Below, piece by piece: positions 993 to 7,939 of a stretch of 64,000 nucleotides of DNA. Position 1 is the first letter of the stretch. Each line of letters opens with the position of its first letter. Location of the stretch: NCBI GenBank assembly GCA_024408095.1, contig JAKSVI010000003.1, positions 2,346 to 66,345 on the forward strand, read 5' to 3'. The stretch is from Bacilli bacterium (GTDB lineage: Bacteria > Bacillota_I > Bacilli_A > RFN20 > CAG-826). A program made the position numbers and the translations under genes. The notes beneath the pieces are model-generated. The model did not search any database, was not told where the DNA came from, and saw only the letters and a program-made list of their open reading frames with translations.

Positions 993-1616
993 ATGCTTCC
1001 TGAAGAAATTGAATCAATAAGAAAAGAATTGTTTACAGAAACTGATAAAAACGAAATTGTAAAAAAACTAATTAATATAAACCAAAAGATAATACAAAAT
1101 TATTTTCTAAAAATTTTTAGTGGAAAAGAACTTGTTTGTAAGGTTTATTTAAATTGGATTGAATCTTATTTTGATAATAAATATTATCATGACATTGTTG
1201 TTGGGAGAAATAGACCAGCCTGTGATTGTAATCCAATTCAGGAAACATGCGGTAATCTTTATGTTTCCTTAAGAGGCCCTCTATATCGTCATAGGGTTGA
1301 TATTACCTTAGGAAAAAAAGATAATTTCTATTCAATTCTTTTAAAAAGAGTATCATTAGAACCTTCTAAGCCATTAAAACTTGAACAATGTGCACTTGCA
1401 AGGATTTTAGGCAAATATAATACAAATGTTTTGCATTTTGAACTTTGCAAAAAATCATCGGTTACTAGTGAAAGCGAAGAAAGAATAGGAATAATTTTAC
1501 AAGATAAACCAAATAACAATAATGATTATAAATTAGCAGAGCGTTGGTCTAAATATGTCCTGGAACACAATAGGTCAGTAAGAGTAGAGCATTTAGATAA
1601 TATATTGACAAAATAA
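993..1616 (+). CDS. hypothetical protein (207 aa), no recognisable domain
   Basis: Long ORF with AAGGTGA about 12 nt upstream of the ATG. It has a Cys cluster (ACDCNPIQETC). I recognise no family motif. Confidence 0.6.
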   Translation: MLPEEIESIRKELFTETDKNEIVKKLININQKIIQNYFLKIFSGKELVCKVYLNWIESYFDNKYYHDIVVGRNRPACDCNPIQETCGNLYVSLRGPLYRHRVDITLGKKDNFYSILLKRVSLEPSKPLKLEQCALARILGKYNTNVLHFELCKKSSVTSESEERIGIILQDKPNNNNDYKLAERWSKYVLEHNRSVRVEHLDNILTK

Positions 1617-1640
1617 AAGTTACCCCCTACATAATAAAGT

Positions 1641-1772
1641 AACCATAAAGAGTGTGGCGAGAGACAAGCTCCATGACCCACCAGCAACCTGTTAATGTAC
1701 TTACAAGGTGCTAAAACTTGAATGATGGGAAATATTTAGTAGATATGCCCATCATTGATGGGCTTTTGTTTA
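1641..1772 (+). promoter_or_regulatory. candidate S-box (SAM-I clan)-like riboswitch with intrinsic terminator expression platform
   Basis: AAAGAG junction at 1647-52. P2 pairs GUGG 1654-57 with CCAC 1678-81; it encloses GAG 1661-63/CUC 1669-71 and an AUGA (1673-76) k-turn-like bulge. GCAACC 1684-89 and GGUGCUAA 1707-14 flank a P3 hairpin. The P2 loop CAAG 1665-68 is complementary to CUUG 1717-20 (pseudoknot). The 3' P1 strand AUGAUGGG 1722-29 can pair with CCAU 1643-46 or with CCCAUCAU 1748-55 (antiterminator). A terminator follows. There is no canonical P4 between GGUGCUAA and P1. Confidence 0.6.
1747..1772 (+). terminator. intrinsic terminator (riboswitch expression platform)
   Basis: GCCCATC-ATT-GATGGGC stem-loop followed by TTTTGTTT. 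Confidence 0.7.
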
Positions 1773-1807
1773 TATCTTATGGTTGTGTTCAAAAGGAGAT
1801 AAATAAA

Positions 1808-2152
1808 ATGAAACAAATTCCTCTGGTCTACAAATCTAAAGATGATTTGAAAGCAGTTATTACAATATGTAAAAAACTAAATTATAAGATTATGCATTGT
1901 TTAGATGATATTGATTCAATAAAAGAACATATTGTAGCAATAGTATTAGATACAGAATATAAAGAAGTATTTCAATCAAATGTTACATGTATGGCTTGTT
2001 GGTGTTCTTCTAGCAAAGAACCTAGAAAACCTTTGTATGCCGACCAATTTGTTGAAAATTATGAAAAATTATTAATTGAAAAAGATGATAAATTCTACAA
2101 CAAGATGATACGAAGAAATTTCAAACTATATAAGAAAAGTATGAAAATATAA
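1808..2152 (+). CDS. hypothetical protein (114 aa, Cys-rich CMACWCSS segment)
   Basis: ATG at 1808 lies 9 nt after AAAGGAG. The listed TTG start at 1718 sits inside the riboswitch/terminator and is unlikely to be used. No family recognised. Confidence 0.6.
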   Translation: MKQIPLVYKSKDDLKAVITICKKLNYKIMHCLDDIDSIKEHIVAIVLDTEYKEVFQSNVTCMACWCSSSKEPRKPLYADQFVENYEKLLIEKDDKFYNKMIRRNFKLYKKSMKI

Positions 2153-2235
2153 CAAAATGTACTTGCACAAGTATATAAACAATATGAATGCATATCACGA
2201 TATTTTACTTTTATAATAATAACGAGGATTAAAAA

Positions 2236-3177
2236 ATGACCAAAAAAAATTTTCTTATAAACCCACTTAAATACAAAACAAAAAATGAGTTCATGATGTT
2301 TTTGAAAAAATGTGATCTAAATTATATTAGTTTAGAAATTAAACATATTGAAAAACTAAAAGATGAATATTTTCTTTTATATTTACAATATGAAGCAAGA
2401 GTTGTATCTGAAATCATAATGCCTCTTACAAATAAATATAATAAAGATAAAGAAAATTGTAATAAAAGTGAATTAAAAGAAATGGTTAACAAAACCATTA
2501 AATTTGGTTTTGAATTAAAAACAATTTTAGAATTAAAAGAAAAAGAAACATTTGAAATTGTTGATAATAAAAATAATCAAGAGAGCTTTGATAAAAAGAC
2601 ATTAATGAGACAAGCTTCAAAAACCTATAATCTATTAAATAATGCATTTAGTGATTTTTCTAAAAGTTCTTTTAATTGTGTTGATCAACTTTTGAGAAGA
2701 TTAATTAATGTACCAGTAACATATTATCAAAATTTATTGGGAATAACTAACACAGGTGATAAGACAATTGATGAGTATTTATTAAAAGAAGAAAAGCAGT
2801 TTGTTCCAGATGTTTTAGTTGGCAAATCTGAAGATATGAAGACTCATGAAAGTGGAAAGTGCTGGGCAAATTCTTATTCATTATATAGCTCTACATTTTT
2901 AGAAACATTAAAACTAATTAACGAAGCTTATTATGCTCCAGAAGTTGACCATTGTGCTTTACGCGCAAAACGATATGCACAATTAATTAGAGATTTAAGA
3001 AGTGAGGATTATATTAGTGTTTCCAAAATTCAAAAGAAATATTCAATAAGCAATAAAGTTTCTGAATCAAGAATGAATGTATTAATAAATCTTGGCTTGG
3101 TTTCAAAAACACGTGACAAATCCAGGTATAAAGTTAACAAGAAAAAATTGGAGAATCTTTTTCATGGGAATTGTTAG
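2236..3177 (+). CDS. hypothetical protein with C-terminal FtsK-gamma-like winged helix
   Basis: GAGGA RBS. The C-terminal DYISVSKIQKKYSISNKVSESRMNVLINLGLVSK resembles the FtsK gamma domain pattern (sis.lQrr..iGynRAarl.d.LE..GiVs). The N-terminal ~250 aa are unrecognised. Confidence 0.55.
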   Translation: MTKKNFLINPLKYKTKNEFMMFLKKCDLNYISLEIKHIEKLKDEYFLLYLQYEARVVSEIIMPLTNKYNKDKENCNKSELKEMVNKTIKFGFELKTILELKEKETFEIVDNKNNQESFDKKTLMRQASKTYNLLNNAFSDFSKSSFNCVDQLLRRLINVPVTYYQNLLGITNTGDKTIDEYLLKEEKQFVPDVLVGKSEDMKTHESGKCWANSYSLYSSTFLETLKLINEAYYAPEVDHCALRAKRYAQLIRDLRSEDYISVSKIQKKYSISNKVSESRMNVLINLGLVSKTRDKSRYKVNKKKLENLFHGNC

Positions 3178-3604
3178 GCATTTTACTTTAGAAAATATTA
3201 ATTTATGTAAGAAACAAGATCCAATAGTGTTATTTTATTCTTCAACTGGTGCAATGGGGCCAAGTGGACTTATATTGGTAATGCTAGAAAATGAAGATAT
3301 ATATGTTGCTAATGCTTGTAGATATAAAGAAAAAGGATATAAAGAAATAGTTGATTCTTTATTTAAAGAATTCCCCCTTCTTAATTGTATCTCTATGCCA
3401 TTAGTGAAAGGTAAAATAAAGATTCCTTCTTCTCATGAATATATTTATCTTGGCTATGGTAATGGGGCAATTATTAATAAAGGCATTATTAACAAATATA
3501 AGATTAAAGATTTTAGAAGCTTCTTTGGTTTTATAAATAAAATTGCAAAAACAGATGTAGAAAAAGTAGCATATGCCCAAATAGAATTAATTGAAGGTTT
3601 ATAA
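3164..3604 (+). CDS. hypothetical protein (146 aa)
   Basis: In-frame ATG at 3164 is preceded by GGAG and overlaps the upstream stop by 14 nt (coupled). The listed 3092 start would overlap the upstream gene by 86 nt. No motif recognised. Confidence 0.55.
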   Translation: MGIVRHFTLENINLCKKQDPIVLFYSSTGAMGPSGLILVMLENEDIYVANACRYKEKGYKEIVDSLFKEFPLLNCISMPLVKGKIKIPSSHEYIYLGYGNGAIINKGIINKYKIKDFRSFFGFINKIAKTDVEKVAYAQIELIEGL

Positions 3605-3637
3605 TTTAAAAATATTATTTAAATAGAGAGGATCATT

Positions 3638-4843
3638 ATGGCTACGAATCAAGAAAAATTCAGACGTGAATTATTAATAACATTAGAATATCTAGTTTTA
3701 TTTACGGATGAAAAACATCCTGCTATGGCATCTAAAATTTGTGAATATGCTTATAAACAATATGGGATTAAGTATCATCAAAAGCCACAACCAGGAGATG
3801 AAATAAGAAGAGATAGAGTTCAGGCTTGTCTTGTTTATTTATATAATGAATCAATTAATGGAAATAAAGCTTTAAATATCATTATTGAAAAAACAGATAA
3901 AGGAAAATTTTATGTTGAAAGCAAATATTTTAATGATGAGCAAATTGTTCAAATTGGAAGAGCAATTAAAAATGACAAATATACTGCTGATGATAAATAC
4001 TTGGTTGAATCATTATTAGATTTAACAACAAATATTTATAATAGAGAAAAAATATTTAATGAGATAAGCAGTTTTTCAATCCGATCAAATAAATATAAAG
4101 AAGAAAAAATTTTAAAAACATTAAAACAAATAAGCAAAGATAAAAAAATTGTTGAAGTTATTATTGAAGAAATTTTCATAAATAAAAAAGGCAATAAACA
4201 ATGTAGAAAAGTGGCAGAAAAATGCCTTATATATTGTTTTAAAGAATGGAATAACGTTTTGTTTGTTATAATGGTTCCTTTAGCGAAATCGGGTTTGATC
4301 GTATTACCTGTAGACAAAGTTAAAATATCTTCTTATTACGATGATTTTGATGAAAAAAGAGATGTTGATGCATTGTTTAAACAAAACTCTAATGCCAATA
4401 CAACGAGATACAATTCTATTGATGAATATTTGCACAGCTGTGTTGGTGTTAAGGATGGTGGCTTCATTACTAATGTAGCATTTTGGTACCTCTCTTCCGA
4501 CAAAAGAAAAATTGAAAGCAGTTTTTTAAGATATTTCGACAAAAATATTGATTCAATTGAGTGCAAATCGTTTTCAATCAATAGAAAAGAAAGCAAAATA
4601 ATGCCTATTGATAAAACGAAAGGCGGCACTTGTGTAGTGAATGTTTTAGCTAATCCTATTTCTATTTCTAATTGGATTAAGAGTTCTGAAGAAGTCTCTA
4701 AAGCAATTCATGTAGTAGGACCTGATATCATTAACGTAGATTTAGCTTATTATTTTTATCACAGGGCAAAGAAATACAAAGATTTTATTCCTGATATTGA
4801 AGTTGAATTTATAGAAAAAGACCCTTTTAAATATCCTGAATAA
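3638..4843 (+). CDS. putative HTH + WYL-like domain transcriptional regulator
   Basis: GAGAGGA RBS. The N-terminus LLITLEYLVLFTDEKHPAMASKICEYAYKQYGI...IRRDRVQACLVYL matches the wHTH layout of YafY/PafBC/BrxR/CapW-type regulators. The central segment CRKVAEKCLIYCFKEWNNVLFVIMVPLAKSGLIVLPVDKV resembles a WYL beta-barrel. Assigned by pattern only. Confidence 0.5.
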   Translation: MATNQEKFRRELLITLEYLVLFTDEKHPAMASKICEYAYKQYGIKYHQKPQPGDEIRRDRVQACLVYLYNESINGNKALNIIIEKTDKGKFYVESKYFNDEQIVQIGRAIKNDKYTADDKYLVESLLDLTTNIYNREKIFNEISSFSIRSNKYKEEKILKTLKQISKDKKIVEVIIEEIFINKKGNKQCRKVAEKCLIYCFKEWNNVLFVIMVPLAKSGLIVLPVDKVKISSYYDDFDEKRDVDALFKQNSNANTTRYNSIDEYLHSCVGVKDGGFITNVAFWYLSSDKRKIESSFLRYFDKNIDSIECKSFSINRKESKIMPIDKTKGGTCVVNVLANPISISNWIKSSEEVSKAIHVVGPDIINVDLAYYFYHRAKKYKDFIPDIEVEFIEKDPFKYPE

Positions 4844-5027
4844 AATACAAATGTGGAAGTATTTCTTAATTATTTTTTTATATAACAACAAATATAATAA
4901 GATAATTTAATCAAATTAATTATGAAATTTTAGATTAATTTTAAAAGATGATCAAAATATCGTAGATGTTGACAAGGATTTCAACTTAGAAAGATGCTTA
5001 GATGAACTAATAATATAACAAAGACCT

Positions 5028-5046
5028 TTATGGAATATTTCCATAA
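5028..5046. promoter_or_regulatory. perfect 19-bp palindrome, candidate operator just upstream of the ARH gene RBS
   Basis: TTATGGAA-TAT-TTCCATAA, 20 nt upstream of the ATG at 5066 and downstream of the WYL-like regulator gene. Confidence 0.3.
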
Positions 5047-5065
5047 GAGTACAGAAAGGAGTATT

Positions 5066-5914
5066 ATGCTTGGCGCGATAATTGGAGATATGGTTGGTTC
5101 GGTTTATGAATTTAACTCTATCAAAACTAAAAAATTTAATATCTTTAATATAAACAATAGAATGACGGATGATTCTATGCTTACTTTAGCAGTAGCAGAA
5201 GTTTTATCTAAATATTATCCGATTGATTATACGAAAGAAAATTTAGAAAAAATAAAAAAAGATTTAATCAAAGAATTTGTCGAAACAGTTAAAAAAGATC
5301 CTGGACGAGGTTATGGCGGATTCTTTTATGATTGGTGCAAATATAACAATAATGGCTATAAGCCATACAATTCATATGGAAATGGTTCTGCTATGAGAAT
5401 ATCTCCTGTTGGATGGATTGCAAATAGCGAAGAAGAAGTAAAAAAATTGTCAAAGGCTGTTACTGAAATTACTCATAATCATCAAGAAGGTATTAAAGGT
5501 GCAGAAGCTGTGGCAATGTGCATTTATCTTGCTAGAACAGGGAAAGACAAAGAGTATATAAAACATTATGTTAAAAATAATTATTATCCTGAAATAGATA
5601 AACTAGATTTTGATGAACTTGTAAAAACATATACTTTTAGTGTGACTTGTCAAAAAAGTGTTCCTCAAGCAATTTATTGTTTCTTAATTTCAAATAGTAT
5701 GGAAGATGCTATTAGAAACTGTATTGCTATTGGCGGTGATTGTGACACAACCGGTGCGATGGCAGGTTCAATTGCAGAGGCTTATTACCAAAGAGATGAA
5801 TTATCAGACTTTGAAAAGAAATTTATATATCTTCAAATTGATTCAGGATATATAAATCGAATAAAAAAGTTTTATAATATGCTTAATAACAAGAAACTAA
5901 TTGATGTTAGATAG
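5066..5914 (+). CDS. ADP-ribosylglycohydrolase family protein
   Basis: ATG at 5066 follows AAAGGAG. Family hallmarks: MLGAIIGDMVGSVYEF, TDDSMLTLAVAE, GNGSAMRISPVG, GGDCDTTGAMAGSIAEAYY. Confidence 0.85.
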   Translation: MLGAIIGDMVGSVYEFNSIKTKKFNIFNINNRMTDDSMLTLAVAEVLSKYYPIDYTKENLEKIKKDLIKEFVETVKKDPGRGYGGFFYDWCKYNNNGYKPYNSYGNGSAMRISPVGWIANSEEEVKKLSKAVTEITHNHQEGIKGAEAVAMCIYLARTGKDKEYIKHYVKNNYYPEIDKLDFDELVKTYTFSVTCQKSVPQAIYCFLISNSMEDAIRNCIAIGGDCDTTGAMAGSIAEAYYQRDELSDFEKKFIYLQIDSGYINRIKKFYNMLNNKKLIDVR

Positions 5915-5956
5915 TCAGAAATGGAACAAAATAGTAATAGTTAAAAGGGTAAAATT

Positions 5957-6751
5957 ATGAAAAATAAATATGAATATGTAGTTGGTGAATCAAATGGCAG
6001 TAATGTTTCAATAGATATATTAAAATATCCTAGCTTTTTAGTTACTGGTTCAACCGGTAGTGGAAAGTCTGTTTTTATAGATTCTCTTCTTGCTAAATTA
6101 TTAAACAAAAATAATAACGAGCTTCTTAATTTAGCATTTATTGATACAAAACAAGTCGAATTTTGTATTTTCAAAAACAGCAAATATCTTTATAAGGATT
6201 TAAATAAAGGCTGTTCTGGCATCGCAAATAATAAACAAGATGCGTTGGCTTTAATTGATTCATTAGTTAATGAAGCTAAACTTAGAAAGGAAATGTTTGA
6301 GACTTATAAGGTTCAAAATTTTGATGAGTTTAATCGCCAAGCAGGAAAAGCCTTAGATTTATTAAGCAATCATAAGATGCCTTTGATTTTACTAATAGTG
6401 GATGATTATGCTGATCTACATTATAACGATAACGAAAATAATATAAGTAAAAAAATGGAAGAACTTTCATCGATTTATAAAGATACTGGAATTGTTGTAA
6501 TAGTTTCTTCTCAACGTCCTAATAAAAATATATTTAATAAATCATTAATTGATTCATTTAGTACACATATTTGTTTTGCATTAACATTAAATAGTGATTC
6601 TAAATTTGTATTAGGTAATAATGATGCTACTAAATTAAACGGTGTCGGTAAAGGAATTATATATAATAGGAAAACAAATACTCAAATTCCTTTTCAATCG
6701 CCTTATATTAGTAAAAATGAATTAAAAGCAATAATTATTAGAAGAAATTAA
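5957..6751 (+). CDS. FtsK/SpoIIIE-family ATPase, motor domain only (264 aa)
   Basis: Walker A FLVTGSTGSGKSVF and Walker B PLILLIVDDYADL, then VIVSSQRP and ICFAL as in FtsK alpha/beta domains. There is no TM segment and no gamma domain. Confidence 0.8.
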   Translation: MKNKYEYVVGESNGSNVSIDILKYPSFLVTGSTGSGKSVFIDSLLAKLLNKNNNELLNLAFIDTKQVEFCIFKNSKYLYKDLNKGCSGIANNKQDALALIDSLVNEAKLRKEMFETYKVQNFDEFNRQAGKALDLLSNHKMPLILLIVDDYADLHYNDNENNISKKMEELSSIYKDTGIVVIVSSQRPNKNIFNKSLIDSFSTHICFALTLNSDSKFVLGNNDATKLNGVGKGIIYNRKTNTQIPFQSPYISKNELKAIIIRRN

Positions 6752-6772
6752 CAAGGTGAGCATATACTTAAG

Positions 6773-7143
6773 AAAAATGAAGAAGAGAAACCTAAACAAC
6801 AAGCTTTAGAGAATCCATATCAAAATGGAATAAGCAAAGTTTGGAAGCATTTAATGCACTTGATAAGACTGAGCCTCTTGGTGAGATAAATAATCAACAT
6901 GATACAGTTTATGTGAGCAATGGCTGAACCGGCTACACGTTTGATAACAATAAATATATAAGTCAATACTTAAAAGGCCCTCCGACTAATTTAACTATTA
7001 TAGTTAAGGATACAAGAAATCAAACTGGTTAAGGAACAATATCAATTATTCTTTATGGCGGCTTAATGAACTATGGTTTAGATTTGTTTAAGGACCCTGT
7101 AGATAATAAAGAAAATATTATTTCCATTTGCAAAATAACGTAG
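6773..7143 (+). pseudogene. decayed gene remnant (frameshift plus two in-frame stops)
   Basis: Frame from 6844 reads EAFNALDKTEPLGEINNQHDTVYVSNG*TGYTFDNNKYISQYLKGPPTNLTIIVKDTRNQTG*GTISIILYGGLMNYGLDLFKDPVDNKENIISICKIT. TGA is at 6925 and TAA at 7030. The upstream part (KNEEEKPKQQALENPYQNGISKV) is in another frame. No start codon or RBS. Confidence 0.5.
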
Positions 7144-7288
7144 ATTTGTAATGATTTTCACTACAAAAAAGCACCTTCTATACTAATTTTCAAACTTATT
7201 TTATAAATAAGATTCAAAAATTATTTAATTACATAATTGTTGTTTATAAAATTCAATGATAATATCATTTCTAGAAAGGAATTAAATT

Positions 7289-7939
7289 ATGACAAAATTA
7301 TTTGAAAAAATTAACAAATGGGTAATTGTTGGTATTGCTGGCGTATATGGCCTATTAAGGCTAATCGGTGGTATTATTTTAGTTTCCAAAAACACCGTTG
7401 AAAATCACGCTGGAACAGCCTCACTCTTTAGTGGACTTGTTATTGCTGCAATTGCTGGTCTCCTTATTTATTTCTTAATTAGGGACAAAAAGAAAGAAGC
7501 AACCATCGTTGGCATTGTACTTGCTGGTTCATTAGTTGTCTCCGCTCTTACAACTGCTGTTAGTGAATGGAGTATGGCCTATTCTCTTGACAGACAATTA
7601 AAAGAATTTGGCGAATGGATGTCATCTGAAAACAAGAAAGAGTTGTCAACTGCTATTAGTTATTATGTCGTTTATGGGATTGCAACCTTAACAATGTTTG
7701 TTGGCGCTGTCGCTTATATGACACCAAAACTAACACAAAAAGTACCACAAAAAGTTGTTAGCCTTGTTGCTTTAATTTCTTTTGCTGCTGCTTTTGTTCT
7801 CTTCTTAGTTGCTACCATCATTTATGGAAATTGCGAAATGCTTAAACATGCAACCGAAAGTGTCGCAAACACAATACTCAATATTGCTTCAATGGTTGAA
7901 GCTGTCTTGTTACTTGTCTTAATGAATAAAGATTTTTAA
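7289..7939 (+). CDS. multi-pass membrane protein, unknown function
   Basis: AAGGAA RBS. Several hydrophobic helices (VIVGIAGVYGLL, LFSGLVIAAIAGLLIYFLI, and others). Confidence 0.7.
   Translation: MTKLFEKINKWVIVGIAGVYGLLRLIGGIILVSKNTVENHAGTASLFSGLVIAAIAGLLIYFLIRDKKKEATIVGIVLAGSLVVSALTTAVSEWSMAYSLDRQLKEFGEWMSSENKKELSTAISYYVVYGIATLTMFVGAVAYMTPKLTQKVPQKVVSLVALISFAAAFVLFLVATIIYGNCEMLKHATESVANTILNIASMVEAVLLLVLMNKDF

Follow-up and report, generated by a model that had tools for sequence, protein, structure and literature searches.

A probable SAM-I riboswitch without helix P4 ahead of an orphan gene family in Bacilli, in a compact form that also occurs on phage contigs

What does an RNA that resembles a sensor of S-adenosylmethionine (SAM) do in front of a gene with no recognisable link to methionine, cysteine or SAM metabolism? 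This question is raised by a leader at positions 1640-1731 (plus strand) of the stretch of DNA analysed here, hereafter the window, which comprises 64,000 nucleotides (positions 2,346 to 66,345) of contig JAKSVI010000003.1 from a Bacilli bacterium (assembly GCA_024408095.1). The leader precedes a gene for a protein of 114 amino acids (aa; 1808..2152, plus strand), which carries the motif QSNVTCMACWC and belongs to an unannotated family that we call family A. A sequence-only reading had proposed that a SAM-I-like riboswitch of the S-box clan gates this gene, and the Rfam search of the whole window agrees: RF00162 (SAM-I) matches 1640-1731 at 48.7 bits, above the gathering score of 44.4 (E = 4e-8), and the search returned nothing besides this match. 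Considering the homology, covariation and predicted folds described below, we regard the RNA, with a probability of about 0.8, as a SAM-I (S-box) riboswitch through which SAM would turn transcription off.

The SAM-I core is present in full. Helix P1 (1643-1646/1725-1728, CCAU/AUGG) has 4 bp in the window and contains the A-U/U-A pairs at 1645-46/1725-26; it is followed by the junction J1/2, AAAGAG at 1647-1652, and by P2a (1652-1657/1678-1682), in which G1652 and G1654-G1657 are paired with C1678-C1682 (GUGG/CCAC). A kink-turn (k-turn; 1658-1660/1672-1677, CGA/CAUGAC) interrupts P2, with C-GA on its 5' strand (1658-60) and CAU-GA-C on its 3' strand (1672-77), and the C-C apposition beside the G-A pairs belongs to the two states that Barrick and Breaker described as common (PMC2258182). 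Beyond the k-turn lie P2b (1661-1663/1669-1671, GAG/CUC) with the loop ACAAG, and P3 (1683-1692/1703-1712), which is flanked by GCAACC at 1684-89 and by GGUGCUAA (GGUGC-AA) at 1707-14. A pseudoknot is formed between CAAG in the P2 loop (1665-1668) and CUUG at the J3/4 position (1717-1720). Every motif named by the sequence-only reading, from AAAGAG, the k-turn-bearing GUGG/CCAC helix, GCAACC and the pseudoknot to the terminator and the complement CUUAUGGUU treated below, was located on the sequence as described. Upstream, a candidate promoter occupies 1605..1635 (plus strand; -35 TTGACA at 1605-1610, -10 region TACATAAT at 1628-1635), which would place the transcription start close to the first base of the aptamer. 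The consensus scan left this promoter unscored because its spacer to CATAAT is 19 nt; the block TTGACAA...TACCCCCTACATAAT is common to the window and the leader of another family-A locus, L068, and a third locus, L007, has TTGACA-17-TATAAT. Folded alone, the sequence reaches just a modest z-score (-2.2), so that the weight of the evidence lies in homology and covariation.

Homologous aptamers were collected by the pattern GCAACC...GGUGCUAA...GAUGG, with a spacing too tight for helix P4, which was run over IMG/VR and returned 54 stretches, about 42 of them true aptamers of the window's layout; all 14 IMG/VR loci that were scored passed the RF00162 threshold (49-64 bits). A covariance model, R1, was built from 35 distinct copies and then run on loci retrieved independently through their family-A proteins; the window itself scores 76.7 bits with this model. 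The covariation alignment is model-based, holds 43 sequences and includes copies that were retrieved by protein and deviate from the search pattern. Although the pair counts lean towards the structure, the alignment being fitted to the model and the sequences related, 93.8% of its cells are standard pairs, 19 of the 28 pairs show compensatory changes with none of 500 shuffles as good, and pairing falls to 33-40% once the 3' partners are slid by 1-3 columns; independent compensatory solutions are many despite this bias. Covariation supports P2a, P2b, P3 and the pseudoknot, the latter being paired in 43/43 sequences with three of its four pairs changing on both sides and with five solutions (CAAG/CUUG, CAGC/GCUG, CUGC/GCAG, CUGG/CCAG and CCGA/UCGG). 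The 4-bp core of P1 is invariant or shows G-U changes only, and its outer two pairs are present in about a third of the sequences. Also invariant are J1/2, GCAACC, GGUGC-AA and the A-U/U-A pairs at the P1 junction; we take these two A-U pairs to be the ones that discriminate SAM from S-adenosylhomocysteine (SAH) in solved SAM-I structures. The pairings that had been proposed from the window's sequence are conserved in its homologues.

Helix P4 is missing. The window's RF00162 alignment lacks the entire P4 hairpin (17 model positions), and P4 occurs in 0/43 homologues, in which the usual place of this helix, between the pseudoknot strand and the P1 3' strand, is taken by only 3-5 nt; in contrast to canonical SAM-I, whose four-way junction includes P4, the RNA thus has a three-way junction, and its P1 comprises 4-6 bp. 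The sequence-only reading had recognised this absence and had likened it to the SAM-IV or SAM-I/IV layouts, a likeness that does not extend beyond the ligand-binding core and the lack of P4 between P3 and P1. SAM-I/IV (RF01725) and SAM-IV (RF00634) possess a hairpin of their own 3' of P1, and SAM-IV also has a P3-loop pseudoknot, whereas no conserved 3' hairpin or second pseudoknot (PK-2) was found among the 43 aptamers: the linker after P1 is short and unstructured (median 19 nt, mean minimum free energy (MFE) -0.9 kcal/mol), and its complementarity to the P3 loop equals that of the permuted control (3.12 vs 3.12). The layout is therefore neither that of SAM-IV nor that of SAM-I/IV. The window moreover keeps the P2 k-turn/internal loop, which SAM-I/IV lacks (PMC2864571, PMC6890682), and its best match within the clan is RF00162. 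The leader shared by loci L007 and L008, where the k-turn is lost in L007, is assigned by Rfam to SAM-I/IV (RF01725, 48.9 bits vs 41.1) owing to a P2 that is nearly one continuous helix. Nor is the absence of P4 as unusual as had been supposed: P4 deletion is the main axis of natural variation in RF00162, with an Actinomycetota group that has little or no P4, and SAM aptamers can work without P4 at reduced affinity, designed P4-less aptamers responding to SAM (PMC12714719). Because the literature accepts P4-less natural members, we keep the RNA in SAM-I as a variant; loss of P4 is known natural variation and not a new class. The P4-less group of the literature is actinobacterial (PMC12714719), whereas the present one belongs to Firmicutes and their phages.

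The elements that follow the aptamer are those of an OFF switch. An intrinsic terminator recovered by the terminator scan (1747..1773, plus strand) consists of GCCCAUC-AUU-GAUGGGC at 1747-1763 and the U-tract UUUUGUUUAU. Its 5' arm, CCCAUCAU at 1748-1755, pairs in the antiterminator with AUGAUGGG at 1722-1729, which holds the P1 3' strand and can alternatively close P1 with CCAU at 1643-46. The three-way competition that had been read from the sequence is borne out by the ligand-free MFE fold of the window, which contains the antiterminator 1722-29/1748-55, and by an equivalent complement (7-8 nt within an 8-nt segment) in 37 of the 41 leaders listed; L007 keeps the terminator, in which a C-to-U change has turned one pair into G-U. 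Support for the SAM-OFF logic is good. We propose the following sequence of events, in which (i) bound SAM would hold the short P1 (CCAU/AUGG) closed, allowing the terminator 1747-1763 to form and transcription to stop near 1770; (ii) at low SAM, AUGAUGGG (1722-29) would pair with CCCAUCAU (1748-55) and block the terminator; (iii) with the terminator blocked, the gene for the 114-aa protein would be transcribed, possibly together with the genes behind it. In its core, P2 k-turn, P2-loop/J3-4 pseudoknot and P1/antiterminator/terminator arrangement, the RNA equals SAM-I RF00162.

The association of this riboswitch with family A is kept across divergent lineages. With model R1, the riboswitch was found upstream of a family-A gene or operon in seven of eight lineages with enough upstream sequence, although the family-A proteins behind it share just 27-52% identity with that of the window. 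Family A directly follows the riboswitch in the window, L007/8, L071 and L076-78; a small open reading frame (ORF) intervenes in L072-75, from an Erysipelotrichaceae metagenome-assembled genome (MAG), a 318-aa gene in L003/4, where an ADP-ribosylglycohydrolase (ARH) gene stands further downstream, and the ARH gene itself in L068/69. In L007/L008 the homologue is 48% identical to the window's protein and the leader 80% identical, with the same promoter, aptamer and terminator. Three further loci, L002, L005 and L009, are without riboswitch on contigs that end too close to the gene. On a contig of a Mogibacterium sp. MAG (L066, 1830-8167), the family-A gene lies directly behind an AAA-ATPase gene and an RloB-like gene, beside type I HsdR (labels read from translations). 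The sequence-only reading had described a target without recognisable methionine, cysteine or SAM function; this stands, and the association holds in seven lineages. As judged by a limited literature check, the link of family A to the riboswitch looks new.

The 114-aa protein, which is also recorded in the 'Bacilli bacterium' MAG GCA_024500515.1 (locus tag MJ227_00865), had no match in Pfam, PHROGs, PADLOC or NCBIfam, and a profile search of PDB sequences with its family gave nothing significant. The usual association of SAM-I with methionine, cysteine or SAM genes is thus not seen for the window's target, whose family is unrecognisable. A word-indexed search of 5.8 billion proteins returned six family-A clusters only, the full profile search 86 clusters at 50% identity. 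The family had one match in GTDB species genomes and one in JGI metagenomes, no tblastn match in INPHARED, and none in IMG/VR by peptide patterns. Its best-kept motif is N-V-T-C-M-A-C-W-C. The earlier description as a cysteine-rich unknown is right as to the unknown family, whereas the three cysteines of the motif are not conserved across the wider family. The AlphaFold2 (AF2) model (predicted local distance difference test score, pLDDT, 86.9) shows a small alpha/beta domain followed by helices; Foldseek found no PDB match for it at E < 1, and only weak matches in BFVD (E >= 0.02), to uncharacterised phage proteins. An alternative 144-aa ORF with a TTG start (1718-2152) was rejected as the gene; it overlaps the aptamer and terminator. 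Family A also occurs as the C-terminal domain of larger proteins, namely P0051, P0066, P0073, P0078, P0081, P0084 and P0089 (433-459 aa) and P0046 (207 aa), and the N-terminal domains of at least P0081 and P0046 resemble a 98-aa phage protein from L019. This 98-aa protein, itself riboswitch-controlled, matches the N-terminal domain of the 207- and 440-aa family-A fusions with pairwise E-values of 2e-5 and 8e-7. In P0031 the family is fused to BspA-type leucine-rich repeats, and in L006 an LRR_5 gene overlaps the family-A gene.

A further conserved element lies between the terminator and the ribosome-binding site. In the window it occupies 1773..1785 (plus strand; family consensus CUCUUUAUGG). 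The sequence-only reading had pointed to an extra complement of the P1 5' strand here, CUUAUGGUU at 1776-84; UUAUGGUUG at 1777-1785 is complementary to the aptamer 5' strand 1640-1648 over 9 bp, and the MFE structure of the full leader has 1642-1648 paired with the element. On its other side, UAUCUU at 1773-1778 can pair with GAGAUA at 1796-1801 in the ribosome-binding site, of which AAGGAGA at 1793-1799 (plus strand) precedes the start codon ATG at 1808-1810. The complement proved to be conserved: CUCUUUAUGG or a covarying version is present between terminator and ribosome-binding site in the majority of the 43 leaders. The P1 5' strand and the element change together (CCAUAAAGAG/CUCUUUAUGG, CCUAUAAAGAG/CUCUUUAUAGG and UCAUAAAGAG/CUCUUUAUGA), with complementary runs of up to 14 nt, for many of which 0/200 shuffles were as good. 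Likewise, the 5' flank of the element matches the bases just 3' of the Shine–Dalgarno (SD) sequence, and both change together (GCACUCUU/AGGAGUGC, ACGCUCUUU/AAGGAGCGU, GUCCUCUU/AGGAGGAC, GCCCUCUUU/AAGGAGGGC and UGCCUCUU/AGGAGGCA); runs complementary to the SD region of the same leader average 9.37, compared with 8.34 +/- 0.22 when SDs are swapped (200 permutations, maximum 9.14).

From this family covariation, we think it somewhat probable that a second, translational layer is placed on top of the transcriptional control. In the absence of SAM, the freed aptamer 5' strand would capture the post-terminator element, leaving the ribosome-binding site open and the mRNA 5' end paired, whereas the SAM-bound aptamer would lock its 5' strand, and the released element would mask the SD, so that transcripts reading through the terminator would be silenced in translation as well. 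Because the aptamer begins at about the transcription start, the alternative pairing would bury the 5' end of the mRNA, and mRNA stabilisation is an equally possible reading of the pairing between 5' strand and element. The leader of L003 (6918-7052) appears to be a purely translational member of the family: it has no terminator, CCUCUUUAUGGAUU comes straight after the aptamer, and the SD is then occluded by a 15-bp hairpin in the MFE structure (-46.3 kcal/mol, z = -4.8). Some phage members (the leaders of L023, L047 and L034) are also without recognisable terminator, and in terminator-less phage leaders the segment upstream of the CUCUUAUGG element is complementary to the nucleotides that follow the SD (GAAAUCUC/GAGAUUUU). 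Translational-only variants may be common. Dual-acting riboswitches such as that of E. coli lysC couple transcription control with control of translation or mRNA decay. Like them, the present RNA appears to govern both a terminator and access to the ribosome-binding site by one aptamer; unlike them, it would do so through a single anti-SD element shared by the SD and the aptamer 5' strand, as the covariation suggests. The conserved post-terminator element, which would compete for both, is additional to the SAM-I layout.

Most of the compact aptamers collected by the pattern lie on phage contigs. The first gene behind the aptamer was tallied over 44 aptamer-like matches (42 in phage contigs, together with L007, L008 and the window). 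MetK, a classic target of SAM riboswitches, is the most frequent (18/44), followed by an orphan family of about 100 aa (family B, MRTIKEL..., 9/44), an orphan family of 106-132 aa (family C, 4/44) and family A (3/44; window, L007 and L008); most of the rest are other small orphan proteins with no Pfam or PHROG match at E < 0.001. When a common superfamily of the small riboswitch-controlled proteins was considered, hhalign aligned family A with the phage families B and C over the same N-terminal beta-alpha unit, but with probabilities of 0.7-17% only. In L019 the order is riboswitch, 98-aa gene, 78-aa gene and Dcm, and in L023 and L047 riboswitch, 105-aa gene and MetK. The complete genome of Ruminococcus phage NatCom_28274 (PV036439.1) carries the riboswitch ahead of a family-B gene (98 aa) which is convergent with a DNA methyltransferase operon; in plasmids, family B had no match. 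In L027 (11492-12754, minus strand), the riboswitch is followed by a short MetK of 361 aa and a ParB/N6-methyltransferase, and then by terminase, portal, protease and capsid genes, and in L036 (6805-10772) a cytosine-5 methyltransferase precedes riboswitch, MetK and ParB/methyltransferase. With their short MetK (361 aa), both arrangements resemble a SAM supply that the phage encodes and couples to the sensing of SAM. L031 carries a tetrahydrofolate (THF) riboswitch (2768-2861, minus strand; RF01831, 71 bits) and, about 1.3 kb away, a P4-less SAM riboswitch (1366-1451, minus strand) that precedes a long protein, PriA-like by eye.

In a rough IMG/VR census with two exact core patterns only and near-duplicate contigs included, about 66 P4-less copies against 1 with P4 were counted for an A-U closing pair, and 2 P4-less against 3 with P4 for a G-C closing pair; the compact form clearly predominates on phage contigs. 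Instead of the chromosomal methionine and cysteine genes of SAM-I, its targets are orphan proteins, ARH and phage MetK or methyltransferase genes. The manA and wcaG motifs of cyanophages (PMC2864571) are comparable in that a metabolite-sensing RNA stands beside auxiliary metabolic genes; here, in contrast, the ligand would be SAM and the cargo consists of MetK, DNA methyltransferases and small orphan proteins.

Behind the 114-aa gene, the window encodes on the plus strand proteins of 313 aa (2236-3177), 140 aa (3182-3604) and 401 aa (3638-4843), an ARH (5030-5914) and a stand-alone FtsK/HerA-like ATPase of 264 aa (5957-6751; PADLOC matches to the SspH C-terminal region, 1.5e-27, and mad8, 1e-18); on the other side, a Fic-domain protein encoded at 153-911 flanks the module, with SoFic as best PADLOC match (3.5e-29). 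The genes at 2236..6751 are possibly co-transcribed with the 114-aa gene: the terminator scan found no plus-strand terminator-like site at 2152-6000, but intergenic gaps of 84 and 186 nt interrupt the row. The window's ARH is 58-67% identical to those of the family-A clusters L002, L003 and L068, which together with the window makes four lineages, and its conservation thus exceeds that of family A; the ARH gene of L068 immediately follows the riboswitch, and relatives with 38-46% identity are found in phage genomes. The 313-, 140- and 401-aa genes are common only to the window and its close relative L002, in which a reverse transcriptase (RVT_1, 400 aa; 6623-7825, minus strand), which may be a group II intron or retron-like insertion, separates the family-A cluster from the ARH gene. 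A perfect 6-bp inverted repeat (2160-2173, TACTTG-CA-CAAGTA) is found in the 84 nt from the 114-aa gene to the 313-aa gene, and L002 (about 620-640) keeps it with only its 2-nt spacer changed (TG); because no U-tract follows the repeat, an operator seems likelier than a terminator, perhaps one bound by the winged helix-turn-helix-like C-terminus of the 313-aa protein. PADLOC gave no match for the 114-, 140- and 401-aa proteins and only weak ones, at the C-terminal end, for the 313-aa protein. Of the Fic/WYL/ARH/FtsK island that had been described here, the Fic, ARH and FtsK-like genes are real, whereas a WYL domain was undetected in the 401-aa protein even at Pfam E <= 10; the single-sequence AF2 model of this protein has a pLDDT of 34. 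No compositional island was seen, the GC content being flat at about 24-32% over 1-16 kb.

What might such a switch serve? We hypothesise that riboswitch and target belong to a regulon on mobile elements and phages of gut and rumen Firmicutes, whose other members would be phage MetK, phage DNA methyltransferases and several orphan families of about 100 aa, and that the 114-aa protein and ARH would help the element or its host to cope with a shortage of SAM, a role that we put forward as possible rather than probable. The wider form of this hypothesis is just as tentative: phages and mobile elements would carry their own SAM-sensing regulon, built on the P4-less aptamer with terminator and anti-SD element, and low SAM, at which methylation protection fails, would switch on MetK, methyltransferases, ARH and the orphans; the window would hold a chromosomal copy, and the orphans, whose set would include family A and the second domain fused to it in some proteins, would be effectors in methylation/restriction conflict. 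The sequence-only reading had proposed instead a host anti-phage defence or abortive infection system, repressed by SAM and released when a phage SAM lyase depletes it. Its OFF logic is correct, and the Fic protein and FtsK/HerA-like ATPase with their SoFic, SspH and mad8 matches resemble genes of mobile elements or defence islands; in L066 the family-A gene adjoins type I HsdR and the AAA-ATPase/RloB-like pair, and a BrnT/BrnA pair is among the neighbours in L076. However, that same L066 copy, the sole one in a clear restriction island, is without riboswitch, family A and the 313-, 140- and 401-aa proteins lack significant PADLOC matches, ARH relatives reside in phage genomes, and phages encode the same riboswitch form over MetK, DNA methyltransferase operons and small proteins. 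Given the presence of this switch in phages, we do not favour a host-defence trigger and consider it quite unlikely; a mobile-element response to low SAM, tied to MetK and DNA methylation, fits the contexts better. An ordinary SAM regulon, in which the 114-aa protein would take part in methionine/SAM homeostasis, for instance as a partner or regulator of MetK or as a small SAM- or methionine-binding protein, is in our view unlikely, even if MetK is under the control of this form in 18 loci, the riboswitch of L023 and L047 heads a transcript shared by MetK and an orphan protein of 105 aa, and the link to family A persists across divergent lineages. The family resembles no enzyme or transporter family of methionine, cysteine or SAM metabolism, its conserved cluster partner is an ADP-ribosylglycohydrolase rather than a sulfur-metabolism gene, and it is rare, patchy and found in small islets and mobile-element contexts, unlike core metabolism.

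The identity of the ligand and the integrity of the RNA can be weighed in the same way. The missing P4 and very short P1 might raise the suspicion of a specificity variant whose ligand is not SAM but, for instance, SAH or a nucleotide derived from SAM, and PMC6847200 mentions subgroups with changed ligand in other riboswitch classes; the elements that define SAM-I are nevertheless all kept (J1/2 AGAG, GCAACC, GGUGCUAA and the P1 A-U/U-A pairs), MetK is frequently the target, and P4-less SAM aptamers are reported to function, designed ones responding to SAM (PMC12714719), which makes a changed ligand very improbable. A decaying or chance look-alike with no present function is barely conceivable: the match exceeds the Rfam threshold by just 4 bits and the z-score is -2.2, but promoter, aptamer, antiterminator, terminator, post-terminator element and ribosome-binding site are all intact, and they are conserved with compensatory changes ahead of proteins that are 27-52% identical. 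Several observations weigh against the SAM-I assignment and the regulon proposed from it. P1 is just 4 bp in the window, and loss of P4 lowers the SAM affinity of model SAM-I RNAs (Heppell 2011, as cited in PMC12714719). The closest homologue of the 114-aa protein, in L002 (85% identity), has no riboswitch in the 276 nt available, and the Mogibacterium copy has none either. The 114-aa protein is without family, structural or defence-model match. The window's own anti-SD pairing, 6 bp including one G-U, is weak, and U-tracts, which pair with purine-rich SD regions, add noise to the covariation test of the SD helix. The exact patterns and near-duplicate contigs of the phage census count on the same side.

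In summary, our analysis describes a probable SAM-I riboswitch of compact form ahead of an orphan gene family. A limited literature check found no description of the post-terminator element, nor of a phage SAM riboswitch controlling orphan genes, and the predominance of the compact form on phages and the covarying post-terminator element look new to this extent. The RNA provides a SAM aptamer that is minimal by nature, with about 87 nt and a three-way junction, and which, with its proposed two-layer platform, may be of use in structural work and synthetic biology. For annotation, the call of a 'SAM riboswitch' should not imply that the downstream gene is metabolic. A textbook regulator of sulfur metabolism is found travelling on phages and mobile elements, where it controls uncharacterised genes; this offers a handle on the function of the orphan families, whose expression is expected at low SAM, and suggests that phages monitor the pool of the methyl donor on which methylation-based protection would depend.

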